Shown: positions 5,001 to 7,937, numbered from the stretch's first letter. The stretch: 64,000 nt of DNA from a virus (IMGVR_UViG_3300017989_000087:22829-86828); one strand, 5' to 3'. Numbers and translations: made by a program. The notes: generated from the sequence alone by a model not told the origin.

Positions 5001-5774
5001 ATGGTAAATATAAGAAAATGCCAAACCTGTCAGCAATGTGATACATGTGAAACATGTGTTACATGCGAGAATTGTGATAGTTGCGATGCTTCATGTGACG
5101 GGTTATGCGATTACTGTAATGAGTGCTATACATGTGACGCTTCTTGTGATGCCGAATGCGATGCAACATGTTATTCTTGTGATGCCTGTGACAGCAGTTG
5201 TGACAACAATTGTAATGTGTGTGATGCCTGTGATACATGTGATGCAGCTTGTGATACATCTTGTGATACATGTGATACCGATTGTCATGCTCTATGTGAT
5301 TATTGTTATGCTTGCAACACATGCGACTCGTCTTGTTATGTGTGTGATATCTGTGATTCTGCATGTTACAATTGTGATGCTTGTGATACCTCCTGTGATG
5401 CGTCATGTGATGCCGTTTGTTATTCTTGTGACGCATGCGATACTAATTGTTATAACGAATGTGATACTTGTGATTTAAATTGTGATGCAACTTGTGACAA
5501 TAATTGCAATGTATGCGATGGGTGTGAAAATTGTGATATTTCATGCAATGCAACTTGTGATTCGGCTTGTTATTCTTGCGACAGTTGTGATTCACAATGT
5601 TATAGTGAATGTGATAATTGTGATGCTTCTTGTGATGCCACATGTTACAATACTTGTAATATTTGTGATGGATGTCAAACATGTGATTCAACCTGTTATA
5701 CAGCTTGTGACGACTGTGATAACTGTTATTCTGAGACCTGTATCACATGCGATGGGGAGTGTGATTACTATTGA
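5001..5774 (+). CDS. Cys/Asp-rich repeat protein A (257 aa, ~72 Cys); candidate radical SAM substrate
   Basis: ATG at 5001 just after the upstream stop. Continuous CX2C/CX3C repeats; internal 50-aa/14-Cys period (TGTTATTCTTG at 5418 and 5568). Confidence 0.8.
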   Translation: MVNIRKCQTCQQCDTCETCVTCENCDSCDASCDGLCDYCNECYTCDASCDAECDATCYSCDACDSSCDNNCNVCDACDTCDAACDTSCDTCDTDCHALCDYCYACNTCDSSCYVCDICDSACYNCDACDTSCDASCDAVCYSCDACDTNCYNECDTCDLNCDATCDNNCNVCDGCENCDISCNATCDSACYSCDSCDSQCYSECDNCDASCDATCYNTCNICDGCQTCDSTCYTACDDCDNCYSETCITCDGECDYY

Positions 5775-6583
5775 ACATTAGAAACAGGGCAGAAAAAACC
5801 AACAATATCAGAGATACAGAATGTGCAATATGTGATTCTTGTTACTCTGGTTGTCAGACATGTGATAGTTGTGATACATGCGATGCTTCTTGTGATGCCA
5901 ATTGCGATACAACCTGTTTTGCTTGTGATACATGTGATACCGATTGTGACGCAGATTGTGATTACTGTGATTCATGTTATACCTGTGACTCATCATGTGA
6001 TGCCTCCTGCGACTCGTCTTGTTATGGATGCGATAACTGTGACTCATCTTGTTATAGTTCATGCGATTCATGTGATGCATCATGTTTTGCCAATTGTGAT
6101 GCGGTATGTGATTCCTGTGATACATGTGATGGAGATTGCCACGATTGCAATACTTGTGATGCTGCATGCGTTTTGTGCGATTCTTGTGATTCTCATTGTG
6201 ATGCAACATGTTATGAATGTGACAATTGTGATAGTTGTGATACCTCCTGCGACAAATCTTGTGATGCCTGTGACACAGCATGTATAGGGACATGCGATGC
6301 GACTTGTGATGTATTATGTGTAGGGTGTGAAATTTGTGATACAGATTGTGATGCCACATGTGATAATTGTTACAATTGTGACACATGCGATGCCTCTTGT
6401 GATACATCATGTGATGCTTGTGATACGGCCTGTATAGGAACGTGTGATGCATCATGCGATGTTGCTTGTTACAGTTGTGATATATGCGATACAGATTGTT
6501 ATACAACATGTGAAGAGTGTGATGCCTGTCAAAACTGCGAAGGAGAATGTGATTGGTGTTATGAATCCACATATTATGCATAA
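5771..6583 (+). CDS. Cys/Asp-rich repeat protein B (270 aa, ~71 Cys); paralog of protein A
   Basis: TTG start overlaps the TGA of protein A. The 150-nt internal duplication (6281 vs 6431) keeps CDACDTACIGTCDA identical with only synonymous differences, which supports this frame. Confidence 0.8.
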   Translation: MNIRNRAEKTNNIRDTECAICDSCYSGCQTCDSCDTCDASCDANCDTTCFACDTCDTDCDADCDYCDSCYTCDSSCDASCDSSCYGCDNCDSSCYSSCDSCDASCFANCDAVCDSCDTCDGDCHDCNTCDAACVLCDSCDSHCDATCYECDNCDSCDTSCDKSCDACDTACIGTCDATCDVLCVGCEICDTDCDATCDNCYNCDTCDASCDTSCDACDTACIGTCDASCDVACYSCDICDTDCYTTCEECDACQNCEGECDWCYESTYYA

Positions 6584-6602
6584 AAGGAAAGATTAATAAA
6601 GA

Positions 6603-7937
6603 ATGATGGAGAAATGTATTGTTATGACAAACAAAAAAAAGAAACATCCGATGGAAGGAAAGATAAGTTCGTTTACAGTTTTTGCAACTGAGAGATGCAA
6701 CATGGCATGTGATTACTGCTTCGTTTATGAAATTTATCAAAAAACTGGTCAGCGTTTCCAAGGAAAAGATATGAGTTTTGATACAGCTAAAGCAACAGTT
6801 GATTTTATGCTCAAGCAAGATGCATATCGTGGAAAGCAAGGTGGAAGAAACGGTAAACTATCGTGGCATTGGTTTGGTGGTGAACCGACAATAAGAATGG
6901 ATCTATTGAAAGATACATGGACATATGCAACTGCAAGATCAAAAGAAGCAAATAAAGATATTCGTTGGGGAATGACCACTAATGCGGTTGCTCTCGCAAA
7001 TGATGATATTGCTGATTGGTTTATTACACACCAACCATTTCATTTTTTGATAAGCTTAGATGGTTGGGGTGAGTCACATGATATGCATAGAAAATTTACC
7101 AATGGAAAAGGAAGCTTTGGTGTTATAAAGAAAGGATTGGATAACATAATAAACAAGGTTCCAGAAAAAGAATTAGAGATAAGGTGGACGGTATCGCCAG
7201 ACAACGGTTCTTATGTTTTTGATTCTCTAAAAAAACTTATAAAATATGGTTTTAGAGCATTTGCATTAGATCCTGTTCATGAAGTAGAATGGTCAGATGA
7301 AGATTTGGATGTATATTATGACCAAGTGAGAAAAAGTGCATATATGTTAATGGACTTGCATAGAAAAGGAATTCATATTCATTTCAAACCATTAAGAGAT
7401 GGCGTGAGAGCTATTGCATCTACCATGAAAAGAAGCAACAGAAGATGTGGTATGGGTATGGGCAGTATATCAGTCACACCAGAAGGCAAGTTAGCTGCAT
7501 GTCATAGATGGGTTAACAGACCAACAGATAAATACAATTATATTCTTGGTGATGTTTGGAATGGCATTGATTATGGCGTTGCTGAAGAGTTCTGGTCGAA
7601 ATTAAAAGTAGAAAATATAAGAAGTGAAGGATTTAATTGTAAAAATTGCCCGATGAAAGGAGGATGTATTGGCGGTTGTTTGGTTGTAAATTATGACCAA
7701 ACGGGGGATATGAATATAATTCCGACAGAGACATGTGTTCATGAAAGAAGAAAATTCCCAATAGCTGCCGAGATATATTCTATTATGTCTGCTGAAAAAA
7801 ATGAGGGATTCTTTAGAAGATATGGACTTCCTCTGCCTTGGTCAGCCAAAAAAGTAGGAGATATAAAAAGAGAACGTGGTAATAGTAACAATAGTTGCTC
7901 TATTAACCCCAAAAATAGAAAACAAAACAAAAAATAA
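6603..7937 (+). CDS. Radical SAM enzyme with SPASM domain (anSME/peptide-maturase-like)
   Basis: CNMACDYC (CX3CX2C), FGGEP, MTTN, ISLDG, then SPASM cysteines RRCGMG...AACH...CKNC...GGCIGGC...C. The start could also be the later MEGKIS ATG. Confidence 0.9.
   Translation: MMEKCIVMTNKKKKHPMEGKISSFTVFATERCNMACDYCFVYEIYQKTGQRFQGKDMSFDTAKATVDFMLKQDAYRGKQGGRNGKLSWHWFGGEPTIRMDLLKDTWTYATARSKEANKDIRWGMTTNAVALANDDIADWFITHQPFHFLISLDGWGESHDMHRKFTNGKGSFGVIKKGLDNIINKVPEKELEIRWTVSPDNGSYVFDSLKKLIKYGFRAFALDPVHEVEWSDEDLDVYYDQVRKSAYMLMDLHRKGIHIHFKPLRDGVRAIASTMKRSNRRCGMGMGSISVTPEGKLAACHRWVNRPTDKYNYILGDVWNGIDYGVAEEFWSKLKVENIRSEGFNCKNCPMKGGCIGGCLVVNYDQTGDMNIIPTETCVHERRKFPIAAEIYSIMSAEKNEGFFRRYGLPLPWSAKKVGDIKRERGNSNNSCSINPKNRKQNKK

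Follow-up and report, generated by a model that had tools for sequence, protein, structure and literature searches.

A three-gene cassette at positions 5001-7937 of the viral DNA stretch IMGVR_UViG_3300017989_000087:22829-86828 encodes two cysteine-repeat proteins, here called CysA and CysB, followed by a radical S-adenosylmethionine (SAM) enzyme with a SPASM region. On the analyses presented here we lean towards a reading in which the enzyme cross-links CysA and CysB by thioethers, the products being most likely parts of the distal tail. The window, meaning the whole 64,000-nucleotide (nt) stretch analyzed, constitutes the 3' 64 kb of an 86.8-kb virus record in IMG/VR with a CheckV completeness of ∼62%. 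The cassette stretch is identical (0 differences) in contigs from 4 runs and 4 studies of sediment or seawater metagenomes, with one contig per run, no length variants, and runs that possibly represent the source samples. Because the contigs of four runs and four studies agree without any difference, the stretch is not an assembly artifact. No RNA dataset was present among the sequencing runs holding the sequence. The enzyme is without the recognition element (RRE) of pathways for RiPPs, peptides made by ribosomes and modified post-translationally, and the three genes are:

5001..5774, + strand: CysA, short-leader Cys-repeat protein of 257 amino acids (aa) with 72 Cys; leader M-V-N-I-R-K, then repeats at once
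5771..6583, + strand: CysB, long-leader Cys-repeat protein of 270 aa with 71 Cys; TTG start overlapping the CysA stop
6603..7937, + strand: radical SAM/SPASM enzyme of 444 aa, RRE-less, predicted maturase of CysA and CysB (NCBIfam, PDB, Foldseek)

A previous annotation from the sequence alone (the first-pass annotation) described CysA and CysB as paralogs with ∼72 and ∼71 Cys, more than 20 C-x-x-C-D motifs each, NIR-containing leaders, similar ends, and no signal peptide. Its cysteine counts proved exact, each protein contains 27 C-x-x-C-D motifs, and neither has a hydrophobic N-terminus. NIR is present in the leaders, that of CysB being (M)NIRNRAEKTNNIRDTEC, and the proteins end in CDGECDYY (CysA) and CEGECDWCYESTYYA (CysB). 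The Cys content is 26-28%, and the gaps between successive Cys are 3 or 4 residues with one exception. Asp follows 62-68% of the Cys and Tyr 13-17%; Asp or Glu stands at +4 of 29-30 Cys per protein, and at +5 of 19-23 further Cys. Both proteins are acidic (56-64 acidic and 2-5 basic residues, isoelectric point (pI) ∼4), CysA having 56 Asp+Glu and 2 Lys+Arg. An alternative ATG at 4980 would give a CysA of 264 aa, and the start at 5001 is favored because homologues begin M-x-N-I-R. The TTG of CysB is replaced by ATG at the equivalent place in a sister virus. Part of each protein is built from a longer unit:

5406..5687, + strand: super-repeat in CysA of 150 nt (50 aa, 14 Cys), 1.9 copies, 75% match
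6184..6513, + strand: super-repeat in CysB of 150 nt (50 aa, 14 Cys), 2.2 copies, 76% match

The pattern of Cys gaps in CysB shows an autocorrelation of 0.77 at a lag of 14 Cys. Apart from CysA and CysB, the 86.8-kb record has no Cys-dense open reading frames (ORFs), which argues that their Cys density is not due to chance. Neither protein matched the NCBIfam and Pfam target models at E ≤ 0.01. The ESM Atlas contains CysB letter for letter, with no model and no usable look-alike.

The reading frame was evaluated against the sister virus (L002), whose flanking DNA is 91-93% identical, using the ratio of nonsynonymous to synonymous divergence (dN/dS). For CysA the ratio is 0.26 in the Cys frame versus 1.42 and 0.76 in the two other frames, and for CysB 0.11 versus 1.75 and 1.13; the ungapped CysB alignment keeps all cysteines. 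The low values in the Cys frame and the values of 0.76-1.75 in the others identify the Cys frame as the coding frame, under purifying selection. The two genes have nevertheless diverged far more than their surroundings, with a dS of 0.95-1.2 versus 0.14-0.24 in the flanking genes (3916-4995 and 6603-7937), a 4-9x difference, and a dN of 0.14-0.25 versus 0.013-0.026. The high dS hints at more than selection: the repeats may have recombined or undergone gene conversion, or the cassette may have been exchanged. CysA and CysB of the sister virus are shorter by 66 and 63 residues, and the protein ends are near-identical; the middle part of CysA, which holds the super-repeat, is absent or diverged in the sister protein (191 aa from the homologous start). 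The sister virus also has an extra membrane ORF of 67 aa with two or three hydrophobic segments between CysA and CysB (L002:9138-9341), which is absent from the window.

Gene calls by JGI on the sister contig (L002:8651-9974) are in the wrong frames and give Val/Ile/His-rich products of 122, 44, and 127 aa, the correct Cys-repeat ORFs being L002:8566-9141 and 9338-9961. A search of a database of 5.8 billion proteins with the CysB leader region returned one candidate and no homologue, which probably reflects mis-called frames and not rarity. Since the sister genes were mis-framed and this leader search came back empty, the Cys-repeat family mostly escapes mining based on proteins, and searches at the DNA level are needed.

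The product of the third gene was claimed in the first-pass annotation to be a CX3CX2C plus SPASM enzyme, and all ten Fe-S cysteines are indeed present:

6696..6719, + strand: radical SAM [4Fe-4S] motif C32-N-M-A-C36-D-Y-C39, invariant in a 4-sequence enzyme alignment
7446..7736, + strand: SPASM region with C282, C300, C346, C349, C355, C359, and C378, invariant in a 9-sequence enzyme alignment

The SPASM model TIGR04085 scores 40 bits (cutoff 27), and the seven SPASM cysteines would be enough for two auxiliary [4Fe-4S] clusters, giving three clusters with the radical SAM site. The comparison with hidden Markov models (HMMs) of known maturases, which had been proposed as a check, placed thioether-forming enzymes at the top:

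PapB family (NF047865, ranthipeptide maturase): 227.3 bits, cutoff 340, profile positions 1-328 of 330
QhpD (TIGR03906): 166 bits, cutoff 453
SCIFF maturase (TIGR03974): 164.9 bits, cutoff 425
nif11-type: 155 bits, cutoff 518.7
CXXX-repeat maturase (TIGR04115): 129.9 bits, cutoff 350
RumMC, the best sactisynthase model listed: 95 bits, cutoff 720
anSME (TIGR03942): 70.5 bits, cutoff 349
CrpC family (TIGR04463): 59.8 bits, cutoff 525

Eight relatives rank the models in the same way, PapB being best, with 182-281 bits for the single-domain relatives. HMM score ranking places the enzyme as a remote sister to the enzymes that form side-chain thioethers, outside all curated families. A scan of representative prokaryote genomes found no close relative of the enzyme, the best match being 33% identical over a partial 236 aa and longer matches ≤28%, and it pointed to neither a provirus nor a host.

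That there is too little room for an N-terminal RRE, as had been pointed out, is borne out by several lines of evidence. Ahead of the first cluster Cys there are only 31 residues. The top match of a PDB sequence search, CteB (3e-30), aligns from CteB residue 98 onwards. The AlphaFold2 model of the enzyme (pLDDT, a predicted local distance difference test, 76.7; predicted template modeling score (pTM) 0.80) has residues 1-18 disordered and the first core strand at 23-27, and with this model Foldseek retrieves CteB first (E 5e-20), followed by the RRE-less anSME. No ORF for a stand-alone RRE of the PqqD type was found in the record.

Linkage between the Cys-repeat genes and the enzyme is maintained over large distances, and the trio recurs in at least five other viral lineages. 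The closest enzymes are on metagenome or viral contigs, with identities of 98% (L002/L003), 54% (L004), 33% (L007/L008), 33% (L011/L012), and 31% (L009). Two Cys-repeat ORFs lie directly 5' of an RRE-less enzyme in four of these lineages (L002/L003, L007/L008, L009, and L011/L012), and L004, a contig of 2.2 kb, has one 5'-truncated Cys-rich ORF upstream of the enzyme. The pair occurs in two forms. One starts with M-x(1,2)-N-I-[RY] (M-P-L-F-I-R in L011/L012) and goes straight into the repeats, and homologues of CysA are found in L002, L007, L009, and L011. The other has a longer leader ending in [KR]-T-[SN]-N-[IML]-[RY]-D-[VT]-E-C; a scan for this pattern identified three genuine loci in IMG/VR and another 15 among metagenome contigs of JGI/ENA, and [KR]T[SN]N[IML][RY]D[VT]E is kept in these 15 as well as in L002, L007, L009, L011, and L012. 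Cys-rich ORFs without the radical SAM gene were named in the first-pass annotation as evidence that would speak against a maturation system; the enzyme is encoded downstream in 10/10 long-leader metagenome loci with at least 1.7 kb of 3' sequence, and in the five loci without it the contig ends within 576 nt. The pair proteins range from 68 to 270 aa, the window having the largest and L011/L012 versions of 68-82 aa. Leaders, ends, and Cys positions are kept at enzyme identities of 31-54%, where the DNA no longer aligns.

The 80 best viral loci encoding a related enzyme, ∼14 of them near-duplicates, were surveyed: in 51 a Cys-dense ORF lies within 1.5 kb on the same strand, and the antisense strands of these loci, taken as control, contained 1 such ORF in 881 kb. 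GenBank phages yielded distant homologues only (≤28%), in unannotated or hypothetical-only records such as phAss-1. As anticipated, the combination of Cys-rich ORF and enzyme beside tail genes recurs in distant viral contigs, and the HMM ranking, synteny, and linkage together support the proposed ranthipeptide-like viral system.

Which residue follows Cys differs among the relatives. It is Gln, Asn, or Tyr there, L007 and L009 have only 1-4 Cys-x3-Asp/Glu sites, and their Cys proteins contain almost no Asp or Glu. The claim that Cys-x3-Asp is a PapB-like motif of the system therefore stands for the window lineage, where each protein has 27, and fails for the relatives. The conserved feature is C-[DQNEY]-x(1,2)-C, and the Cys-x3-Asp grammar is specific to the lineage of the window.

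Cys repeats are also fused to the N-terminus of the enzyme in P0002, P0003, P0007, P0009, L009, L010, and L017, which supports a functional coupling of repeat and enzyme. The fused segment is joined by a Gln/Pro-rich linker in L004:456-2132, L009:2951-4219, L010:5857-7137, and L017:5710-7200 and is absent from the window enzyme. In L007/L008 the Cys-repeat part is a separate 99-aa ORF (L007:3114-3413) overlapping the enzyme start. A programmed frameshift between this ORF and the enzyme was considered for L007 and rejected, as the enzyme has its own ATG; the arrangement is a split form of the fusion in L004 and L009. The fused segment may be a third substrate, an adaptor, or a substitute for the RRE. 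A different kind of small Cys-tailed protein is also found beside related enzymes in viral contigs (L018, L019, L021, L023, L024, L026, L032, L043, and L068). These proteins are of ∼190 aa, with repeats of the 'KKTHIVELR...HYH' type and ends like CCECECTCTC.

The genomic position of the cassette points to the virus particle. From the start of the record the + strand encodes the large terminase (TerL), portal, HK97-type major capsid protein, and tape measure, next a DUF4815-like 888-aa protein, a LamG protein, a 1047-aa protein, a 359-aa beta-helix protein, and the cassette, and downstream of it, on the same strand, a 91-aa protein, a 188-aa protein, and a 1440-aa DUF2341 repeat fiber. Placement between tailspike and fiber genes, as originally described, thus holds, with the beta-helix protein upstream, the fiber downstream, and the cassette in the distal part of the tail module. 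The neighboring genes are:

773..3916, + strand: 1047-aa tail-region protein (phrog_13135, E 1e-28), N-terminal domain paralogous to the 188-aa protein
3916..4995, + strand: beta-helix protein, tailspike-like, 359 aa (Pfam Beta_helix, E 1e-6, 28.9 bits, cutoff 25.9)
7978..8253, + strand: 91-aa protein with hydrophobic C-terminus, directly 3' of the enzyme gene
8278..8844, + strand: 188-aa protein, homologue of the N-domain of the 1047-aa protein (phrog_13135, E 1e-19)
8940..13262, + strand: fiber-like 1440-aa protein, DUF2341 and a long array of 14-residue W/E-rich repeats (Pfam DUF2341, E 5e-18)

The 188-aa protein and the fiber gene bracket the cassette on its downstream side. The 91-aa protein, without a Pfam or PHROG match, has a 90-aa counterpart at the equivalent position in the sister virus. 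Residues 236-357 of the beta-helix protein, its C-terminal domain, recur in a 400-aa protein upstream of the L007/L008 cassette (tblastn, 38% over 122 aa). In L011/L012 the order is DUF4815 protein (577 bits), two fiber-like genes, Cys pair, enzyme, Amidase_2 lysin, and serine recombinase; this lineage is a temperate bacteriophage. The order DUF4815, fiber genes, Cys pair, enzyme is thus common to the window virus and the L012 bacteriophage. A C-terminal module of ∼50 residues is shared by the 1047-aa protein (773-3916) and the 888-aa protein (G000:C1:19751-22417; phrog_8309 and phrog_38707, N-terminal positions 1-54), as if it were a common adaptor.

In several more distant relatives the repeat is physically part of larger proteins. 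In L013, L017, and L020 the repeat, in the form C-x-x-C-[QDEN], makes up the C-terminal ∼100-300 aa of proteins of 850-1030 aa, and in L066 it is inserted in a baseplate protein of the P2 gpI type (Tail_P2_I, Pfam E 9e-6). The enzyme gene of P0004 lies after genes for Baseplate_J and Tail_P2_I. A metagenome-assembled genome (MAG) of Elusimicrobiota (GCA_040757695.1) encodes a 758-aa fusion of two radical SAM/SPASM modules (L005:5001-7277). Baseplate_J, Tail_P2_I, an 802-aa protein, and an 88-aa protein with a Cys/His-rich C-terminus are found upstream of it, and a peptidase U32 and a B12-binding radical SAM gene downstream.

We infer from these observations that the enzyme acts on CysA and CysB, and the following mechanism is proposed. 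The enzyme would cleave SAM at the CX3CX2C cluster to a 5'-deoxyadenosyl radical, which would attack the residue after Cys (Asp here; Gln, Asn, or Tyr in relatives) and remove a hydrogen from one of its side-chain carbons. The resulting carbon radical would be captured by the sulfur of a Cys 3-5 residues upstream, bound at the first auxiliary cluster, to give a thioether of the ranthionine type. Repeated from unit to unit of the C-[D]-x(1,2)-C array, this reaction would turn CysA and CysB (∼28 kDa each) into densely stapled acidic rods, resistant to reduction and protease. Given the 29-30 Cys with Asp/Glu at +4 and the 19-23 with it at +5, up to ∼50 overlapping small rings per protein are conceivable. 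Recognition without an RRE would probably proceed through the N-terminal M-x-N-I-R leader (together with KT[SN]NIRD[TV]EC in the long-leader paralog), through direct contact between barrel and repeat, as anSME binds its peptide, or through a combination of the two, and the conserved leaders and a clade-specific C-terminal helix of the enzyme are candidate docking elements. With Gln, Asn, and Tyr at the acceptor position of L007 and L009, the acceptor would not be a carboxylate in all relatives; either amides are tolerated by the chemistry or the acceptor lies elsewhere. The products would be distal tail parts (fiber or tip) rather than exported peptides.

Several points weigh against this interpretation. 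No curated family cutoff is reached by the enzyme, whose chemistry is thus an extrapolation, and the acceptor is uncertain because the residue after Cys varies among relatives. The link may instead be a sactionine (at C-alpha), or Cys may be modified in another way, and a protein with 27% Cys and a pI of 4 could bind metals, modified or not. An AlphaFold2 prediction of CysA from an 8-sequence alignment (pLDDT 42, pTM 0.22) gave an all-helix guess and is unusable as a fold. CysA and CysB are free-standing, with no physical tie to the tail in this genome, and the large fused proteins of the relatives belong to phrog_8917, a family without assigned function, so that a structural role comes mostly from gene position. 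Gene position and the fusions thus support, and do not prove, a part for CysA and CysB in the virion.

Among the alternatives, one holds that CysA and CysB are modified and act outside the virion as a released, RiPP-like product serving antimicrobial competition, host manipulation, or as a decoy. The enzyme family is indeed known from RiPP pathways, the division into leader and core and the paired precursors resemble a typical RiPP cluster, and the L011/L012 versions are peptide-sized. However, no protease, ABC transporter, or immunity gene lies beside the cassette here or in L007, L009, L010, and L011, and no protease or transporter gene was adjacent to it in this record (∼62% complete) or in five relatives, although host enzymes may supply these functions. 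The leader is not followed by a double-glycine or other evident cleavage site, the position of the cassette inside the late structural operon is constant, and relatives have the repeat joined to a baseplate protein and to large proteins of the tail region. A released product is therefore considered unlikely.

CysA and CysB could alternatively be chiefly metal-binding, like metallothioneins or through Zn, Fe-S, or Ca (via Asp), the enzyme modifying few or no Cys or using the proteins as a reservoir of Fe-S or sulfur. The high content of Cys with CxxC/CxxxC spacing and the acidity of both proteins would suit this function, and a metal-handling role is suspected for the published CrpA cluster. 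We regard it as improbable, since it leaves unexplained the strict adjacency to a peptide-modifying radical SAM/SPASM enzyme, the leaders, and the enzyme fusions, and since the acidity is not conserved in L007 and L009.

It is very improbable that the enzyme serves another substrate, as an anSME-type enzyme for a sulfatase-like protein or as an NrdD activase, with the Cys ORFs as unrelated neighbors. The window does hold nrdD (25017-28076, - strand) and a sulfatase-like/PAPS-reductase fusion (36596-38251, - strand), and anSME, likewise RRE-less, is the second-best structural match. The anSME model nonetheless scores 70 bits versus 227 for PapB, no NrdG-type match is among the models listed for the enzyme, and the sulfatase-like protein is without the formylglycine motif [CS]-x-[PA]-x-R. 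Both genes are 17-30 kb away on the opposite strand, and short or partial relative contigs showing no sulfatase or nrdD still pair Cys ORF and enzyme; the grouping with anSME or NrdG that was named as a reason to abandon the proposal was thus not observed. The notion that the Cys ORFs are not genes, and that a TGYGAY-rich DNA repeat is open by chance in several frames, retains practically no probability: the repeat does lack stops in further frames of both strands, and frames of this kind were chosen in the JGI calls, but the notion is refuted by the dN/dS values given above and by leaders, ends, and Cys positions that outlast the alignable DNA.

The sulfatase-like/PAPS-reductase fusion is accompanied in the window by an APS-kinase/cytidylyltransferase-like fusion (50818-51690, - strand), and these two sulfation-type fusions point to a possible virus-encoded sulfation pathway. 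A second radical SAM gene is located at 43988-45178. ARAGORN reported a tRNA-like gene of 75 nt at 43780-43854 (- strand) with a four-base anticodon (atcc) and no amino acid assignment.

The host of this tailed virus from marine sediment is probably an archaeon. This leaning is due to a family-B polymerase that is nearest to haloarchaeal tailed viruses (27-29% identity, E to 5e-87), to a syntenic relative (TerL 64%, portal 58%, and capsid 52% identical) filed under a Candidatus Bathyarchaeota MAG, binning being weak evidence, and to the Pfam MJ0330_N domain in the terminase of that relative. TerL itself is uninformative as a host marker, its best GenBank matches being Streptomyces phages at 28%, and ten further ORFs gave no domain-specific marker. 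NrdD has an ATP-cone and is interrupted by a LAGLIDADG domain, either an intein or a homing endonuclease, and no NrdG-type activase was recognized among the scanned ORFs neighboring nrdD. An anaerobic ribonucleotide reductase fits an oxygen-sensitive enzyme.

More generally, and only tentatively, we propose that in tailed viruses of bacteria and (probably) archaea a radical SAM enzyme makes rods laddered with thioethers, and that these rods build or cap the tail end in contact with the host. No virus particle would have been known before to carry a post-translational modification made by a radical SAM enzyme. In the window virus an RRE-less enzyme would act on free-standing, almost pure repeat substrates that evolve 5-10 times faster than their neighbors, as for a host-range determinant. 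If true, viruses would harden a structural part by a chemistry familiar from small antibiotic-like peptides, and this part would last in anoxic sediments whose reducing, protease-rich conditions disulfides do not withstand. Thioether-cross-linked proteins such as CrpA would also be extended to viruses, with substrates of ∼70 potential donor Cys, and a compact, RRE-less, possibly processive maturase would be of interest for stapling peptides and proteins.

We found no paper on viral cassettes of Cys repeats and radical SAM enzymes. The PapA/PapB system of Paenibacillus polymyxa, which makes freyrasin, provides the best-scoring model, a radical SAM enzyme with a seven-Cys SPASM region and substrates with repeated Cys-x3-Asp. 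In contrast to the window enzyme, which has no RRE and stays under the 340-bit cutoff, PapB carries an RRE at residues 1-86 (PMC12715619). In vitro, however, a Cys-Xn-Asp/Glu motif suffices for PapB, the leader is dispensable, and the enzyme is active with the RRE deleted (PMC12715619). PapA is a short peptide that receives six links (12 H lost), whereas the substrates here have 257-270 aa and ∼72 Cys, every putative ring in CysA and CysB encloses a Cys, and the relatives swap Asp for Gln, Asn, or Tyr. Moreover, PapA/PapB is a bacterial RiPP cluster, unlike the viral tail operon described here.

Closer in substrate size is the CrpA/CrpB/CrpC cluster of Methanococcus voltae, in which CrpC installs ranthionine links on the 28.8-kDa Cys-rich CrpA (Dieter et al., September 2026; PMC13692751). 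It shares with the cassette a protein-sized Cys-rich repeat substrate beside a radical SAM/SPASM enzyme, and paralogs with a common N-terminal region (the NIR motif in CysA and CysB). CysA and CysB do exceed the usual RiPP size, as the first-pass annotation claimed, but with CrpA/CrpC published (PMC13692751) protein-sized substrates are no longer unprecedented. CrpC differs in having a predicted RRE, and its family model (TIGR04463) scores only 60 bits with the window enzyme. CrpA consists of a 47-residue N-terminal region and a 17-residue repeat, whereas CysA and CysB are nearly all repeat, with a Cys density several-fold higher, and the Crp cluster is cellular.

The CXXX-repeat system (TIGR04115) likewise combines tandem targets having Cys every few residues with a dedicated radical SAM/SPASM maturase, but the spacing there is strictly 4, as opposed to mixed 3 and 4 here, and its accessory maturase was not seen in the cassette. 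To our knowledge, it has been catalogued without experimental study. QhpC/QhpD, the second-best model (TIGR03906, 166 bits), is functionally the nearest analogue of a structural part held by cross-links: QhpD forms Cys-to-Asp/Glu side-chain thioethers in the gamma subunit of quinohemoprotein amine dehydrogenase, which stays in a larger assembly. Its substrate, however, is small, with few links, no repeat array, and no viral context, and the enzyme here falls under the cutoff of 453. CteB (PDB 5WGG/5WHY) is the top match of the window enzyme by sequence and structure, but has an N-terminal RRE, and the SCIFF system differs in its 45-residue, six-Cys precursor, no SCIFF-like peptide having been found here. 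anSME (PDB 4K36-4K39) has the compact RRE-less layout of a SPASM enzyme that binds peptide directly in the barrel, but it oxidizes Cys or Ser to formylglycine and its model scores 70 bits. What is new in the cassette is the viral tail-module setting, the two-leader pair, the RRE-less enzyme, the near-pure repeat with ∼72 Cys, and the fast, length-variable evolution; the nearest known system is PapB/PapA by score and CrpA/CrpC by concept.

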